From a virus: DNA of 64,000 nt. Position 1 is the stretch's first letter. Every line of letters begins with the position of its first letter. Below, piece after piece: positions 28,168-50,906 of this stretch. The stretch lies in IMG/VR virus record IMGVR_UViG_3300023192_003818, positions 28,378 through 92,377 of that record; one strand, 5' to 3'. The notes under the pieces were generated by a model. The model was given only the letters and a program-made list of their open reading frames with translations, did no database searches and had not been told where the DNA came from. The translations under genes and the position numbers were made by a program.

Positions 28168-28797
28168 TTATAATCTTGAAATATATTGGTTAACATCATC
28201 ATCATCACCAAATCCTAATTCTTTTAATCTCTTTAAATGATATTCATCTACTTCAAACTCAACGGTTTCGCTTGTACCGTGGTGTGGGGTTTGTTCTTCA
28301 ATTTGCATTATATCTTTTTTATTAAATATATTACCTATTTGTAAAAAATAATCATTATAACAAAGTAATTCTATATTTTCTGTTGTATAATTATGTCTAT
28401 TACCATCCTTAAAATGCATTAATAAAGGTATTTTATAATCAAGAACTCTTCTTTCCTTAAATTTACAAACAGCACATTCCTCTAATAAATATCCTTCTTC
28501 TATAAGTTTATATTTTATTTTTGAAGAACTCCATGAAGAAGCATTAACCTTACCCGAAAGTATGTCCTTAAGTTGAATAGAATTATTACCTTTAGTAAAT
28601 TTTGGAACACCTTTACCACCCCAATTTATATGGATTTCATATAAAGATTTACCAGTTTTATTATCAGTATACATTTTGGCATACCTTTTATAATGTTTAT
28701 ATGAAACATGAAGATACCTTGAAGCTGCTAAATTAGATAAAGTACTAGCTTGGGCAGCAACAATCATTTCTTTACTCAAAGGTTTGACTCTTGGCAT
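28168..28797 (-). CDS. HNH-like zinc-binding protein with N-terminal DNA-binding region
   Basis: CAVC...LLMHFKDGNRHNYTTENIELLCYN. Confidence 0.6.
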   Translation of the reverse strand: MPRVKPLSKEMIVAAQASTLSNLAASRYLHVSYKHYKRYAKMYTDNKTGKSLYEIHINWGGKGVPKFTKGNNSIQLKDILSGKVNASSWSSSKIKYKLIEEGYLLEECAVCKFKERRVLDYKIPLLMHFKDGNRHNYTTENIELLCYNDYFLQIGNIFNKKDIMQIEEQTPHHGTSETVEFEVDEYHLKRLKELGFGDDDDVNQYISRL

Positions 28798-38486: not shown

Positions 38487-39419
38487 TTAATAAATAAGAG
38501 AATGATTTAAAAATTTTCCCCTATATTCATTAGCATTTATTAATTCATACTTTTCTCGGGGTTTCCAAGTGCTAAATAATTCATCAAAAGATTCAATAAT
38601 TCTTTCTCCTTGAATTTTTGATGTAAATCCTGCTTCTTTTGACATAGCCCATTCTCTTCCTTTTAATCCTATTCTTTTACGTTCCTTATTACTTAATTTA
38701 TAAATTTCTTTTAAAATTTCAGTAACATCTTCCCATTTACACCTATCATCAAAAATATAAGGGGTGGGGGGTGACCCTTGAATTGATCTACTAGTAGGAT
38801 ATACAGGGAAAGCCCATTCTCCATGTTGTTTATAAGTTCCTCTATGGTTTGATGGTATTTCTTTTGAAGGAGTATACCATTTACCTTTTTTATCTATAAA
38901 TCTCATTTGGTCTTGCATTCCCCCTGTAACATTTGCTATAAAAGGAGTTCCACTTAACATAGCTTCAGTAAGAGTTAATCCCCAACCTTCATTTGAAGTT
39001 ATTAGTATTTGAACATCTGTTAAATTATAGAGATAATTTAATTGTTTTTGAGGTATTTTGGTTAATGAAAATATTACATTTTCACTATATTCTTCTCCAA
39101 ATAAATATTCTCTTACTTTCTCTAAATCCGTCCCAGCATTCGTTATTAATTCAGTATGAAGAATTAAATAACAATGTTTTGATTTTTCTTTAGGCAATGA
39201 ATCTAAAAATACCCTAAAAGCCAACATTGTATCTGGAATCTGTTTTCTTCTAATATTACGGGAATTAAAAAATACAATAAATTCAGGGGTTTTATCTTTA
39301 AATATAGTTTTTTTAAATTCCATTAATCCTTTATCATTTTTATCTAAAGGTTTATATACCTCCTCTGAAAGCCCATGAGGTATATATTTAAGGAGTATTG
39401 GAGTTGTTCTGTTTTTCAT
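38487..39419 (-). CDS. GT-B (GT4-like) glycosyltransferase, C-terminal part
   Basis: IPHGL, FNSRNIRRKQ, SNEGWGLTLTEAMLSGTPFIANVTGG. Confidence 0.8.
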   Translation of the reverse strand: MKNRTTPILLKYIPHGLSEEVYKPLDKNDKGLMEFKKTIFKDKTPEFIVFFNSRNIRRKQIPDTMLAFRVFLDSLPKEKSKHCYLILHTELITNAGTDLEKVREYLFGEEYSENVIFSLTKIPQKQLNYLYNLTDVQILITSNEGWGLTLTEAMLSGTPFIANVTGGMQDQMRFIDKKGKWYTPSKEIPSNHRGTYKQHGEWAFPVYPTSRSIQGSPPTPYIFDDRCKWEDVTEILKEIYKLSNKERKRIGLKGREWAMSKEAGFTSKIQGERIIESFDELFSTWKPREKYELINANEYRGKFLNHSLIY

Positions 39420-39984
39420 TTTTTATCTAAATCAATAAAATCTACCCCTTGCATTTCCAAACATAGTTTGTGTATGTTATGGGTTTGTTTACTTATACCC
39501 ATTAATAAATCACAAGATTCATAGTAGGCCCCGTTAAAGGCAGGGGAAGGTCCATTATCCCAAACTGAGAGGTAAGTAATAGGTATTTTCTTTCTAATCT
39601 CATGTTCCATATTAAATATCCAACCAAAATATCTAGGATCTGTTACTAGCATAATCGCATTAGGTTTCTCTATATTAATTAATTGTCTTAATATTTGGGG
39701 GTTTCCATAACCCTCTACAGGATATTGGATAACTGAAGAATCAGTAAGACCTGTTTCTTTATTTACATCTTGACTTAAATCTAATCTTTTATTTTTTTGA
39801 GGATGATTTATGGCTCCAGCCAAATTTACCCAGTTAAAATGTTGAGCCGTATGTAAAATTATTTCTTTTGCAACTGTTGCTACTCCTGACTTTACTCTAA
39901 TTAAATATCGTCACAAATGAGCAATATCTTTTTTCGATATTTTTGCTCAATGTGACGAAACTTTGATTTTTGAATATTAGGCAT
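39416..39984 (-). pseudogene. GT-B glycosyltransferase N-terminal part, interrupted by a 5-nt insertion (39899..39903)
   Basis: ATG at 39984 reads MPNIQ...KKILLICDDI* ; removing TAATT gives ...CDDIRVKSGVATVAKE...WVNLAGAINHP, joining track ORF 39416..39823. Confidence 0.75.
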
Positions 39985-46933: not shown

Positions 46934-47876
46934 TTATATTTCATAGATTTCAAAAACATCTATATGAGGGTTTAAGTTAAATTCCCACCCTATATCTTCC
47001 ATGAATCCTTCTAATTTATTTAATAATATACTCTCAAATACTTTTTTTCTATTAGCATATTTTTCAATAAAATCATTAATTTTATCAGGAATTTTATTAG
47101 ATATATAGGCTATTGATTCTACTTTGTAAGGATTATCATTTAAATAAATCCATTTAATCTTATCTGATGATGTAATATACGAATTTTGTTTATCTAATCC
47201 CCAAAATTTTAATAAATCATTGTATCTTATTGCTGCTTTAACGGAAGCTGATGCTTTTTTCTCAATATTAGTAAATATTTCTCCTGCTCTAGGTTTTCTG
47301 CCAGTATATTTTTTGAGTGTTTTAACTGATGTTGGGTTACCTAATTGTGTTAAAGGAATTTCACCCTTTATTATAGATTTTTTAAATACTTTAATTTGAC
47401 TTATAATCACTTCTTTTTCAACTCCTTTTAATACTTGTTTTAATATTTTTTCAAAAAATTTACCAAATACTGGGGGAAAATTAGATTTTTTAAATTCTAA
47501 TCCTTTAATGTCAACAAAATCTTTTTTAATAATACCATCTTGTTTAGTAATCCATTGAGCATATCTTCTAGTTTTTCTAAAATAAGCCGAACGGATAACA
47601 CATTCAGTTTTCATTTCTAATTTATGTGAATCAAGATTAAAACATTCTTTTGCTAATCTATCATAATCTTTAGTTATAATATCTTGGTATTGTAAAGCAA
47701 CATTTTCTAATACTTCATCTTTTTTTTTCTCACTAAAATTATCAAAATCTTTATATAAAAACTTTAATAAGGGTTCAGCATGAATATAGACTGAGTCGGT
47801 ATCACTAACAATAGGCAACGAAATTTTCGTCGCCTACTTTACATATAAATTCAGGAGTATCTTCCAGGTGTTTCAT
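46934..47876 (-). CDS. polB: Family B DNA polymerase, C-terminal subunit; motif C interrupted by a 4-nt insertion
   Basis: ATG at 47876 reads MKHLEDTPEFICKVGDENFVAYC*; DTDS, KxE, RRYA and KGLE follow in the +1 frame (track ORF 46934..47818, TTG start). Confidence 0.85.
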
Positions 47877-48261
47877 AAATTATTTTATTACTTTTATTTC
47901 TATTTCCAATATATCCAACTTCGTCTGTATTCTTTTTATCTTCTAATTTAGATTTATCCCAACCTCTTAATTCATAGTATTTTTCTTTAGGTTCACCAGT
48001 CCACCCATTTATTCCTTTCTTTGGCAAATAAAACAGGTGAATATAAATAGCAGGAAATCCGGATATTACCATTAATATCATGGCTATAGTTCGGTTAAAC
48101 AAAGCTGAAGCTCCAACTATAATAACTAAAATCAATATAAATTTACCAATTTTTCTAATTTTAGGTGTGTGCTCTTCAAAGTGTCCAAATAGTATGTTTC
48201 CTATTGAATAAATGATACTTACAATAGCAATTTCAAACCAAAACGATTCAATTGACCACAT
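47851..48261 (-). CDS. Membrane protein, bacterial-like
   Basis: Three TM helices; GHFEE.TP...; GINGWTGEPKEKYY. Confidence 0.65.
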   Translation of the reverse strand: MWSIESFWFEIAIVSIIYSIGNILFGHFEEHTPKIRKIGKFILILVIIVGASALFNRTIAMILMVISGFPAIYIHLFYLPKKGINGWTGEPKEKYYELRGWDKSKLEDKKNTDEVGYIGNRNKSNKIIYETPGRYS

Positions 48262-48266
48262 TTTTT

Positions 48267-48575
48267 TTATAATTTTTTCTTACTTAATTCTTCATTATCA
48301 TAATATTTTATGAATAATTCATATCCATCTTCCTCACATTTATTACAAGAATAACCTTTACTTACTGTATTTAATGCTTGGTCATAAACGTATAAATTTT
48401 CTAATTCTTCATTTTCTTCAGGAGTAAATTCAGTAGGATCTTTTTCTAAATTTTTAAACCAATCTTTTCTTCCCCATTTATCGATTAATATTTCCATTTT
48501 TTCTTGGGGGAAAATCATTGGTAAAAAGAGCCATTCATTATCTGTATTTTGTTCACAAAATTGACATTTATTCAT
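48267..48575 (-). CDS. CxxC...CxxC zinc-binding hypothetical protein
   Basis: CQFC and YDQALNTV...CNKC. Confidence 0.6.
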   Translation of the reverse strand: MNKCQFCEQNTDNEWLFLPMIFPQEKMEILIDKWGRKDWFKNLEKDPTEFTPEENEELENLYVYDQALNTVSKGYSCNKCEEDGYELFIKYYDNEELSKKKL

Positions 48576-48657
48576 TTTTTATATATTTTTAATTTCACAA
48601 TTCATATTATTCATCTTATTTCTCTCTTTTTTCTTATATTGAGGTACATATTTTTCT

Positions 48658-49050
48658 TTATTTAATTATACAATCTCTACACTCCCAACTTGGACCAACT
48701 GTATTTAAAAGTTGGTCATAAAAGTAAGCATTATCAACTTTTTTAGCTCCAAATTTTTCTTCTAATTTAGTTTGGATTTCTTCACTCCAATTATTATTAT
48801 TATTTTTCATTAAAACATCTTGATAATCTAAAATTTTATTTAATTCTTTATCTTTCATTCCAATATATTCACAGGCATCTATTCTTTCTTCAATCATTGC
48901 TCTAAAAATTTTAACTAATTTTTGCCCTTCAAAATTACCAACTAAAGGGTCTCCTTCTTTGCCAAAAGGTTTTAAATCATTAATATGAACTTGACATCTT
49001 TCACATTTTCTATCTGTTGGGGGTGGGTTAATATAAATTTTTTTAGTCAT
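48658..49050 (-). CDS. CxxC...CxxC zinc-binding hypothetical protein
   Basis: CERC and YDQLLNTV...CRDC. Confidence 0.6.
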   Translation of the reverse strand: MTKKIYINPPPTDRKCERCQVHINDLKPFGKEGDPLVGNFEGQKLVKIFRAMIEERIDACEYIGMKDKELNKILDYQDVLMKNNNNNWSEEIQTKLEEKFGAKKVDNAYFYDQLLNTVGPSWECRDCIIK

Positions 49051-49148: not shown

Positions 49149-50906
49149 TTATATATTTAATTTTACTTTACCTTCACAGGGTAGAGATTTCATAAATTCT
49201 TCCTTAAATTTGGGGTCTTTCATAATTTTATTTATGTGATTATTTGCACATAATGCACTTTGTTGAATTATAGACCACCCTGTCAATGTAATGGCTTCAC
49301 TTAATATAGCTTTATTTTTTCCATATCTAAATGAAGGCAAAGAACTTGCCCCATACAAACTATTTAGTAAAATTTTAAATGAGTTTTGAATCATAAAATA
49401 ATGATCTCCTTTTTCCTCATCTCCTGCTTTATAAGCTTCTTTCATTAGTCTTTTATATTCAACTCTTTCGTTAAACCATTCTTCTAAAACTATAGCCATT
49501 ACTGATTTCTTATCGGTTCTAAACATAACTCCATTTGCAGATATTGATAATTTTTTACCTATAATAAATTTTATTAGACTAGAAACTTTCATTTTTACTC
49601 TTTTGTTTTGGTCGCTATTTTCAATAACTAATTCCTCATCAGGGTCTCTCTCTTTTAAATCATTAAGCCCCAATCTATTATTACGGTCATTATCATCAAT
49701 AATCCTAGCTACTAATGTTTCTCTTCCTATATTAAGAGAAATAATAATAAAAGGATATTGAGATGTTAAATCTTCATCAAACATATATTTATAAAGACCT
49801 GCTTTTGGGCAAAACAAATAACCTCCTGCATATCCTTTTTTTGATATTTGATTTCTTTCTCTTGCAGGAGGAATTATTCCTTGAGATAATAAATAAGCTG
49901 AAATAGCTCCATCATGTGTTTTACTACTTGCATAAACTTCACTATAATTATGTTTTCCTTTATGAGATATATTAATTGTTAAGTCTATATATTGTAATTT
50001 TTCATCCAATTTTTTTAATATTTCAACATCAATAAAATTATAATTAATAAATTTATGTATATCTTCTTTAAATAAATCATCAAGATTTCCATCATATTCA
50101 ATTTTACCTAATCCTGCATATTTTTTACCAATAGCATCTAAGGTATAGCTTGGTTCATCTCTCCAATAATATTTTTTATGTAATCTATAATAATCTAAAG
50201 ATTCAACCCCTGCGATTTGAACATAAGTGTCCTTATTGAACCACCAATCATTATTTTTTTTACATTTAACTATCCCAATTGGGGATAACATATTTGCCCA
50301 ATCTTCTCCTAATACATTACAAATTCTATAATATAGGTAAGGTATATCAAAAAAACAACCATTATAAGTAACTAAAATGTCAGGATCAATCTCTCTAAAT
50401 CTTTCAATAAATTTTGATAATAATTCTTCTTCATCTTTACAAGGTATAATCTCTTTATTTTTAAATTTGGTATATTTTAAATTTAATTGCGTATCCAAAA
50501 CCAAAATCCCCCATTTATCAAGTTGTTTATCCCACCATGCAATTGAAGTAATTTTTTTAGGGGCATTAGATATTTCAACTTCTGTAATCTCCTCTAGCAT
50601 TTCACACTCAATATCAAAAAATAATATTCTATGTGTAGTAGAAGGGGTACTATCTATCCCATATCTTTCAATTAGAAATTTCTGATATGGAGCCATATCA
50701 TGAAAATGTAATAAAGGATTTTGTTTATCCCATTTCCATATCTTTTTTAAATTTTCATCTTTAAACCCTTTAAATTCAGATTCTGAAGGAGAACATTCAA
50801 TATAAGCTTGATTATACCAAGTTATTTTTTTATAACTTTTATCAGTCCAAAGATGAATATTGAATTTATTCTTACCTATTTGTTCGGCAAAACATTTAAT
50901 ATACAA
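49149..50906 (-). CDS. polB: Family B DNA polymerase, N-terminal subunit (3'-5' exonuclease, motifs A and B)
   Basis: FDIEC (ExoI), YNG..FDIPY (ExoII), YN..D (ExoIII), DEDLTSQYP (motif A), QNSFKILLNSLYG (motif B); ends before motif C. TTG start. Confidence 0.92.
   Translation of the reverse strand: MYIKCFAEQIGKNKFNIHLWTDKSYKKITWYNQAYIECSPSESEFKGFKDENLKKIWKWDKQNPLLHFHDMAPYQKFLIERYGIDSTPSTTHRILFFDIECEMLEEITEVEISNAPKKITSIAWWDKQLDKWGILVLDTQLNLKYTKFKNKEIIPCKDEEELLSKFIERFREIDPDILVTYNGCFFDIPYLYYRICNVLGEDWANMLSPIGIVKCKKNNDWWFNKDTYVQIAGVESLDYYRLHKKYYWRDEPSYTLDAIGKKYAGLGKIEYDGNLDDLFKEDIHKFINYNFIDVEILKKLDEKLQYIDLTINISHKGKHNYSEVYASSKTHDGAISAYLLSQGIIPPARERNQISKKGYAGGYLFCPKAGLYKYMFDEDLTSQYPFIIISLNIGRETLVARIIDDNDRNNRLGLNDLKERDPDEELVIENSDQNKRVKMKVSSLIKFIIGKKLSISANGVMFRTDKKSVMAIVLEEWFNERVEYKRLMKEAYKAGDEEKGDHYFMIQNSFKILLNSLYGASSLPSFRYGKNKAILSEAITLTGWSIIQQSALCANNHINKIMKDPKFKEEFMKSLPCEGKVKLNI

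Follow-up and report, generated by a model that had tools for sequence, protein, structure and literature searches.

The DNA analysed here, referred to as the window, is a stretch of 64,000 nucleotides (nt) covering positions 28,378 to 92,377 of the IMG/VR virus record IMGVR_UViG_3300023192_003818, a linear viral contig of 106.6 kb with an estimated completeness of ~65% and a G+C content of ~26%. On its minus strand, the window encodes a split family-B DNA polymerase (PolB) of the gp43A/gp43B type, in which the exonuclease domain and motifs A and B are specified by the first gene (N-subunit), and motif C, the KxY region, and the thumb by the second (C-subunit, polB-C). The reading frame of the second gene is broken by stop codons inside motif C, and this interruption is the subject of the present analysis.

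A split polymerase gene pair interrupted in motif C

The N-subunit matches the Pfam families DNA_pol_B_exo1 (3e-23) and DNA_pol_B (1e-16). For the C-subunit, a PDB search with the single sequence returned no matches, whereas a profile of its family could be aligned with residues 603-889 of RB69 gp43. The two-gene organization is family-wide, with relatives (L005 and L006) divided at the same place, and the C-subunit family comprises more than 3000 protein clusters, nearly all of ~311 amino acids (aa), with marine samples as their main source. Among cultured phages, the nearest is Microcystis phage Mel-JY01 (~35% identity), whose polymerase gene is not split. A split PolB is also present in Methanothermobacter, and a polymerase divided into gp43A and gp43B was reportedly described in the Aeromonas phages 44RR and 25 by Petrov, Ratnayaka and Karam in 2010. 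These enzymes are likewise encoded by a pair of cistrons, the second of which supplies motif C and the thumb, a likeness that covers the A/B split only and not a frame break within motif C. No second PolB and no PolA were found on the 106.6-kb contig (estimated to be 65% complete), and one apparent additional PolB match in the genome proved to be a 22-residue polB segment within an unrelated large protein that is not a polymerase.

The C-subunit frame opens at a minus-strand ATG (47876-47874) and runs for 23 codons (MKHLEDTPEFICKVGDENFVAYC), forming a short open reading frame (mini-ORF) that aligns with residues 1-23 of uninterrupted homologues and with RB69 gp43 from ~600 to the Tyr before D621. 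Its last codon, TGT (47810-47808), is followed by TAG and TGA. The +1 frame is open from 47833, the first start codon in it being TTG at 47818, and the ORF listed from this TTG (46934..47818) reads MPIVSDTDS... (PIVSDTDSVYIH...) down to the stop at 46934. The junction DNA is GCC TAT TGT TAGT GAT ACC GAC TCA, and deletion of four nt gives AYCDTDS or AYSDTDS. An earlier interpretation made from the letters of this DNA without database searches (the sequence-only reading) had described the ATG-initiated frame with its TAG and TGA, the junction letters, and the TTG start of the listed ORF exactly as they stand on the minus strand. Its further proposal that removal of 4 nt restores the YxDTDS motif is borne out by more than 200 homologues that run through this point in one frame.

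In the relatives, the N-terminus of the C-subunit is encoded in one frame as M(K/R)H(L/I)E(D/E)TPW(F/W)ICD...N(Y/F)CAYVDTDS. Homologues thus begin with MKHLE... and not at the position corresponding to PIV-SDTDS, a start that the sequence-only reading had considered. Among the DNA sequences of more than 200 distinct relatives read from IMG/VR and JGI, none is interrupted, and exactly one residue separates Y and D in all of them, this residue being S or C in close kin. Examples of the uninterrupted form are L142 (GCC TAT TGT GAT ACA GAC) and, at the protein level, P0287 (...FAAYCDTDSVYIHAEP). Judging from this comparison, the one-frame arrangement is the ancestral state, relative to which the window carries a surplus of four bases (TAGT) separating the codon for Cys from that for the first Asp in DTDS.

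The interruption recurs in separately assembled data. Logan contigs from four runs of four studies (2018-2023) show 0 differences and 0 gaps relative to the window over positions 47480-48400; two of these runs may be the window's own source, and two are independent of it. The junction is also identical to the window in an ENA scaffold (L011), no contig lacks the four extra nucleotides, and across four studies dated 2018 to 2023 this phage genotype dominates, with a word depth of 5-35x. A suppressor tRNA or an alternative genetic code was rejected, as reading TAG or TGA as sense does not bring back DTDS; the only tRNA found in the window is a tRNA-Met. An intein or group I intron at motif C was likewise discarded, the inserts at this site, including those of the sister alleles described below, being only 4, 5, 8, or 9 nt long.

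Sister alleles, selection and hairpins at the break

Interrupted alleles are rare, with four in all versus more than 200 uninterrupted relatives, and they differ in the length of the insert and the resulting frame. The window allele (TGT-T-AGT) has 4 extra nt and a frame offset of +1. A relative with 85% identity (P0126), retrieved by a protein search with the truncated ORF and likewise called short, carries an 8-nt allele in its DNA (L009 and L010, from two runs), which reads GCC TAT TGT TGA CA AGT GAT ACT GAC and shifts the frame by +2. A 9-nt allele (runs X2 and X5) reads GCC TAC AGC TGA CTA AGT GAT ACA GAT TCA, stays in frame (offset 0), and has its own ATG-initiated mini-ORF. The fourth allele was found by a search with the first 110 residues (P0284, plus P0328 of the same cluster) and has 5 nt inserted inside DT|DS (L183 and L331, two samples), reading TAC TCG GAC ACT TA ACT GAT TCT with a frame offset of +2. 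In all four alleles, a stop codon immediately follows the last sense codon and a like codon immediately precedes the next needed codon, the pairs being UGU/AGU twice, AGC/AGU once, and ACU/ACU once. UGU and AGU (window and 8-nt allele) match at 2/3 positions, AGC and AGT are synonymous Ser codons, and the two ACT codons are identical. The AGT that immediately precedes GAT is shared by the 4-, 8-, and 9-nt alleles, and the mini-ORF with its ATG is intact in 4/4. Since the offsets are +1, +2, 0, and +2, no single frameshift rule fits all alleles, whereas precise skipping does, restoring YxDTDS.

Searches for further interrupted alleles yielded none. An exact 21-mer search of IMG/VR gave zero additional cases, and all seven matches of the pattern TGAC-N1-2-AGTGATAC... 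in IMG/VR lay outside polB. Only uninterrupted genes were recovered from IMG/VR by two alignment-based scans and by a pattern scan for DS(V/I)YIHAEP, and a scan of JGI metagenomes returned nine relatives, 0 of them interrupted. Four truncated C-subunit fragments (P0244, P0249, P0277, and P0282) come from long-read contigs of 1-5x in which many genes are broken, and they were set aside as uninformative.

P0329, available as a protein alone from Logan run ERR10503241, represents a mosaic C-subunit whose first ~34 residues follow the uninterrupted mainstream form (MKHLEDTPWWICDEGDYNFCAYVDTDSNYFHAEPLL) and which beyond this point is at least 90% identical to the lineage of the 8-nt allele, suggesting that the 5' cassette region has been exchanged by recombination. 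The window and L010 show 1 difference in ~104 nt upstream of the break, and their homology ends abruptly near 47915, which is consistent with recombination. An origin of the mini-ORF by duplication of the C-terminus of the A-subunit was also considered and dropped, as L005 retains the ...KLNI end.

For the downstream ORF, comparison of the 4-nt with the 8-nt allele gives a non-synonymous divergence (dN) of 0.081 and a synonymous divergence (dS) of 0.53, i.e., a dN/dS of 0.15. The ratio is 0.049 over the first 100 downstream codons, beginning with DTDS, and the first nucleotide changes past the junction are synonymous; for the clamp-like gene next to it, dN/dS is 0.148. Because of these values, and because the contig carries no other PolB or PolA, the downstream ORF is judged to be expressed and under purifying selection, indicating that the interrupted state is old and that the gene is not a decaying pseudogene.

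An exceptionally stable predicted RNA hairpin ends on the last sense codon, hereafter termed the take-off codon, in each of the three PolB alleles with readable sequence (4-, 8-, and 5-nt), among which the hairpins were compared. The window hairpin has a folding energy of -19.2 kcal/mol in 71 nt (z score -3.6). In a 45-nt frame ending at UGU, it reaches -17.4 kcal/mol, versus a mean of -4.97 (standard deviation 2.08, minimum -13.2) for 113 uninterrupted homologues, and this value lies below all 3552 sampled 45-nt windows of the genome (minimum -17.3). The hairpin of the 8-nt allele (L010) has a value of -17.4. The DT|DS allele (L183) forms a different and stronger hairpin (-25.2 versus a background of -5.33, standard deviation 2.30), the last pair of which likewise takes the first base of the take-off codon. 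With 113-119 uninterrupted homologue segments as the background for PolB and 45 for the glycosyltransferase gene described below, stable hairpins ending on the take-off codon occur in interrupted alleles only, 5-9 standard deviations beyond the uninterrupted segments of the two genes. The hairpin-forming stretch of the window differs in amino acids from the family consensus (KVGDENFVAY versus DKEDxNYCAY); as the hairpins thus come at the cost of amino-acid changes, it can be argued that the structure itself is selected. A simple terminator scan flagged none of the PolB and glycosyltransferase hairpins as intrinsic terminators.

A second cassette in a glycosyltransferase gene

A GT-B glycosyltransferase (GT) gene on the same strand of the window is broken in a comparable manner (Table 1). 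Its junction reads GAT ATT TA ATT AGA GTA, where the first 27 codons end with ...LLICDDI before TAA and the next frame reads RVKSGVATVAKE..., and all 80 of the 80 homologues in IMG/VR are uninterrupted, with ...LICDD(I/L)RVHSGVATV... at this place. A five-base skip from ATT to ATT restores the GT protein exactly. The minimum free energy of the associated hairpin is -24.8 (z score -7.5), and in a 63-nt frame it is -23.2 versus -7.42 (standard deviation 2.24) for the homologues. The break is identical in five contigs from five runs, and no canonical start codon is present ahead of the conserved GT motif in the new frame.

When the whole contig was scanned for a codon followed by a stop, a like codon within 12 nt, and then a long ORF, 283 matches were obtained. 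Among the 25 matches with the most stable upstream fold, only the PolB and GT sites resemble junctions of two short-overlapping ORFs, and ten other matches that were examined fall inside a long ORF in a different frame or coincide with a regular gene start. The architecture of a hairpin, a last sense codon, a stop, an in-phase codon repeat, and the needed codon therefore appears, from these comparisons, to have arisen at least three times, i.e., at the Y-x position of PolB, inside DT|DS of PolB, and in the GT gene. In the three sequenced cassette types, the take-off codon lies 23-27 codons after the start (PolB 23, DT|DS 25, and GT 27), so that the nascent chain would still sit in the exit tunnel, with the hairpin placed after the start codon and ahead of the take-off.

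A further break occurs in this GT gene at its inter-domain linker (39411-39427, minus strand; GAT AAA AAA TG AAA AAC), where each homologue has one continuous ORF (~456 aa from the match start). This second break may be a true split, with start and stop overlapping in ATGA, or a hop of 5 nt from AAA to AAA; no strong hairpin was seen at it.

Table 1. Features of the interrupted PolB and GT loci in the window
Feature	Position	Strand	Description
PolB N-subunit gene	49149..50906	-	585 aa; exonuclease domain and polymerase part up to motif B (KILLNSLYG); C-terminus ...GKVKLNI-stop
Three small ORFs between the PolB halves	47851..49050	-	From the ORF list
Small ORF 1	48658-49050	-	130 aa, CxxC
Small ORF 2	48267-48575	-	102 aa, CxxC; paralogue of the 130-aa ORF (both CxxC...CxxC)
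Small ORF 3	47851-48261	-	136 aa, hydrophobic; its end overlaps the mini-ORF start
PolB C-subunit, first coding segment	47808..47876	-	23 codons, ATG to proposed take-off TGT (47810-47808)
Predicted RNA hairpin at the PolB break	47810..47838	-	13 bp, 3-nt loop; last pair takes the first base of take-off UGU; TTG 47818 in the 3' arm
In-frame stops TAG (47807-47805) and TGA (47804-47802)	47802..47807	-	If hopped: gap base T 47807, landing codon AGT 47806-47804
PolB C-subunit, second coding segment	46934..47803	-	Proposed resume codon GAT 47803-47801, first D of DTDS; rest of motif C, KxY region (RRYAQW), thumb, stop
GT-B cassette	39899..39984	-	ATG 39984; proposed take-off ATT 39906-39904 (codon 27); stop TAA 39903-39901; landing ATT 39901-39899; resume AGA 39898
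Predicted GT hairpin	39963-39903	-	Main stem 39958-39908; ends on the take-off codon

Proposed ribosomal stop-hopping and competing explanations

The explanation considered probable is a programmed 4-nt ribosomal stop-hop from UGU to AGU, by which one C-subunit with AYC-DTDS would be made from two frames. Translation would begin at ATG 47876 and reach codon 23, where peptidyl-tRNA(Cys) would be paired with UGU while the stop UAG occupies the A site. If the established footprint of the ribosome is applied to this site, the 13-nt 3' arm of the hairpin would lie within the mRNA path of the ribosome when UGU is in the P site, and the 5' arm would lie outside. Zipping of the stem behind the ribosome would then drag the mRNA ahead and detach the first base of the take-off codon, upon which the tRNA would release and re-pair 4 nt downstream on AGU, with a match at 2/3 positions. 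Decoding would resume at GAU to give ...FVAYC-DTDSVYIH... with the canonical YxDTDS spacing. The sequence-only reading had offered four options, namely recoding at the stop codon, an excision footprint, a subunit that really starts at the TTG, and an assembly error; the first of these, in its +4 form, fits the data best.

Several considerations weigh against the stop-hop. The whole case draws on comparative sequence, and the take-off UGU and the landing AGU of the window match at only 2/3 positions. The 9-nt allele is known from two 30-nt loose contig ends alone, and the contigs of the 5-nt allele have low coverage (1.3x and 1.6x) and probably come from one study. Synthetic stop-hops are inefficient (~1%) in E. 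coli, whereas a replicative polymerase should need a fair yield. Moreover, the window has a TTG in the downstream frame, which leaves room for coupled reinitiation in the window allele alone.

Such reinitiation is the foremost of the competing accounts, yet an unlikely one: translation would terminate at UAG and restart at a nearby start codon (TTG 47818), and the 23-residue peptide would join the truncated C-subunit and the N-subunit non-covalently. The enzyme is already split over two genes in thousands of relatives, the window offers a TTG located 13 nt ahead of the stop, start and stop overlap as TTGA in the 8-nt allele, and separate chains would make variable frame offsets harmless; a Pfu polymerase engineered to be split by termination-reinitiation is active (PMC3061061). 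However, the 9-nt allele contains no ATG, GTG, or TTG between the stop and DTDS, the DT|DS allele has no start codon either and would have its pair of catalytic Asp residues divided between separate chains, and the GT cassette is likewise devoid of a canonical start before its conserved motif. The TTG of the window is buried in the hairpin stem and falls out of frame in the 8-nt allele, and reinitiation leaves the repeated codon and its place right before the resume codon unexplained. Given the position of the TTG in the hairpin arm, its off-frame location in the 8-nt allele, the sister alleles that lack a start, and the retention of the mini-ORF in 4/4 alleles, the TTG-start subunit of the sequence-only reading is disfavoured. 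Next in rank, and quite doubtful, is a plain +1 frameshift at UGU-UAG, in which AGU would be decoded in the A site to give AYC-S-DTDS and the other alleles would be expressed by other shifts or by readthrough. The offset of the window is indeed +1, and such shifting is known or proposed to be stimulated by an A-site stop and by a 5' stem-loop (PMC5009743), but tRNA(Cys) would be unable to re-pair on GUU, no Shine-Dalgarno-like stimulator is present, and the sister alleles would require +2 or -1 shifts or readthrough, differences that set the site apart from +1 frameshifting of the prfB type. These other events would add 2-3 residues inside YxDTDS or even DTD, whereas one residue lies between Y and D in all of the more than 200 uninterrupted relatives.

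Correction at the RNA level is improbable. It would involve a nascent hairpin that melts the RNA:DNA hybrid and an RNA polymerase that realigns the 3' end of the transcript on the second copy of the repeat. A hairpin right behind a short direct repeat (X-TA-X) suits such a jump, and hairpin-stimulated transcriptional slippage is known at homopolymer runs (PMC5009743). On the other hand, the repeat in every case equals the last sense codon precisely and keeps the phase of the reading frame, every allele has an immediate stop that RNA polymerase would not need, the AGC/AGT repeat of the 9-nt allele is a wobble pair but a 3' mismatch for RNA, and the hairpins are not seen as terminators by the simple scan. 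To our knowledge, no multi-base jump of this kind by RNA polymerase has been described in bacteria or phages. A lower rank still, and a very low probability, is given to a defective or selfish allele that does not make the full C-subunit, the phages relying on co-infecting relatives or on the truncated protein. The rarity of interrupted alleles (4 among more than 200 relatives) and the allele exchange seen in P0329, which combines a body of the 8-nt lineage with an uninterrupted 5' end, are in line with this idea, but a dN/dS of 0.15 over a dS of 0.53, accrued after the alleles diverged, is not, nor are the intact mini-ORF and ATG of all four alleles, the dominance of the genotype at 5-35x word depth in four studies, and the lack of a second polymerase on the contig. 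A sequencing or assembly artefact, suggested by the origin of the window as a metagenome-assembled contig, has a negligible probability, as independent assemblies from four studies and the ENA scaffold are identical and other samples show related yet distinct interruptions at this codon; the independent contigs refute the assembly error of the sequence-only reading. An excision footprint is possible as the origin of the four nucleotides but leaves the continued function of the gene unexplained.

Utilised bypassing is known from very few systems: gene 60 of T4 with its homologues, a single lineage of yeast mitochondria, and a number of putative cases. In T4 gene 60, a stop follows the take-off codon, the peptidyl-tRNA re-pairs on a matched codon, and a 5' stem-loop whose pairing is completed on exit of the mRNA from the ribosome is believed to serve as a forward-pulling motor; hops over a stop between matched codons also work in synthetic constructs (PMC5009743; bioRxiv 10.1101/2024.12.09.627546). 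According to the review by Atkins et al. 2016 (PMC5009743), a natural (in-frame) stop-hop is not known, and a 2022 survey found only gene 60 homologues, in topoisomerase genes. The PolB site resembles gene 60 in its immediate stop after the take-off codon, its proposed landing codon directly before the resume codon, an mRNA structure at or 5' of the take-off codon that could pull the mRNA forward, and its location in highly conserved coding DNA, a few dozen codons past the start of the downstream half of a replication gene that is split. In contrast, the gap is 47-50 nt in gene 60 versus 1 nt in the window and 1-6 nt in the sister alleles, and there is no sequence homology. The PolB gap holds no take-off stem-loop and has no room for an internal Shine-Dalgarno sequence, the window's codons for take-off and landing are imperfectly matched, and the nascent chains of 23-27 residues in PolB and GT make a KKYK-type signal ~30 residues back impossible. 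Gene 60 is also a topoisomerase gene linked to a mobA-type HNH endonuclease, its bypass belonging to the MobA homing-endonuclease cassette by which topoisomerase genes 39 and 60 are split, whereas the gene here is polB, flanked by ORFs without a match to an endonuclease family. The PolB site thus appears to follow the logic of gene 60, yet it is not a member of that homologous family.

Two further systems invite comparison. The synthetic stop-hops in E. coli (Weiss et al. 1987, reviewed in PMC5009743) also involve a short peptidyl-tRNA hop over a stop to a like codon, a design that the 9-nt allele (AGC UGA CUA AGU) approaches closely; they are artificial and inefficient and lack a dedicated stimulator, whereas a strong 5' hairpin accompanies every sequenced natural case here. 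In the byps of Magnusiomyces capitatus mitochondria, short inserts in essential genes are likewise skipped in translation, sometimes between codons matched at 2/3 positions (PMC5009743). These inserts differ in being 27-55 nt long at 81 sites, in being read by mitochondrial ribosomes with an unused A-site codon, and in their reported independence of mRNA context.

It can be proposed, with as much confidence as doubt, that uncultured marine phages carry a class of miniature recoding cassettes, each composed of a strong 5' hairpin and a last sense codon that is followed by a stop and, 4-9 nt further on, by a like codon. Ribosomes would hop over the few bases concerned, which lie within the most conserved motifs of essential genes (YxDTDS of PolB and the N-terminal motif of the GT-B enzyme); such cassettes would be exchanged by recombination and may guard DNA from homing endonucleases. 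The T4 gene 60 insert protects DNA from nicking by MobA while leaving the conserved protein region unaltered. By analogy, it may be speculated that the inserts described here shield conserved motif-coding DNA from homing endonucleases without changing the protein, an idea that fits their placement in the most conserved motifs and the recombinant P0329. If the stop-hop is real, it would be the first natural short one and a second, independent, and far simpler solution beside T4 gene 60. A minimal cassette of ~35 nt that shifts ribosomes by 4-9 nt would also offer a simple system for sliding driven by mRNA refolding, and phages would be able to place non-coding bases inside active-site codons, with a bearing on the arms race with homing endonucleases. 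Annotation practice would change as well, since such genes are now called truncated, 'frameshifted', or pseudogenes; at this locus, the present call for the catalytic subunit of the replicative polymerase takes the TTG as its start and leaves out the tyrosine of motif C.

The three small ORFs between the PolB halves have zero matches to Pfam, PHROG, or homing-endonuclease families, and other small ORFs occupy this spot in relatives. Further downstream, ~63 nt of polB-C (47474-47536, encoding GIIKKDFVDIKGLEFKKSNFP) recur within an unrelated protein of at least 937 aa in the same genome (G000:C1:105072-105203, L002). At this repeat, the contigs of all four Logan runs break and the word depth rises about fourfold. 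In L331, one of the contigs with the 5-nt allele, the polB-C frame stops at the ...EKLD/IKGLEF motif and is followed by unrelated sequence, which may reflect a mis-join at the ~63-nt repeat or a further insertion at a second conserved motif. The same repeat is found at 83% identity in other viral contigs (L007 and L008).

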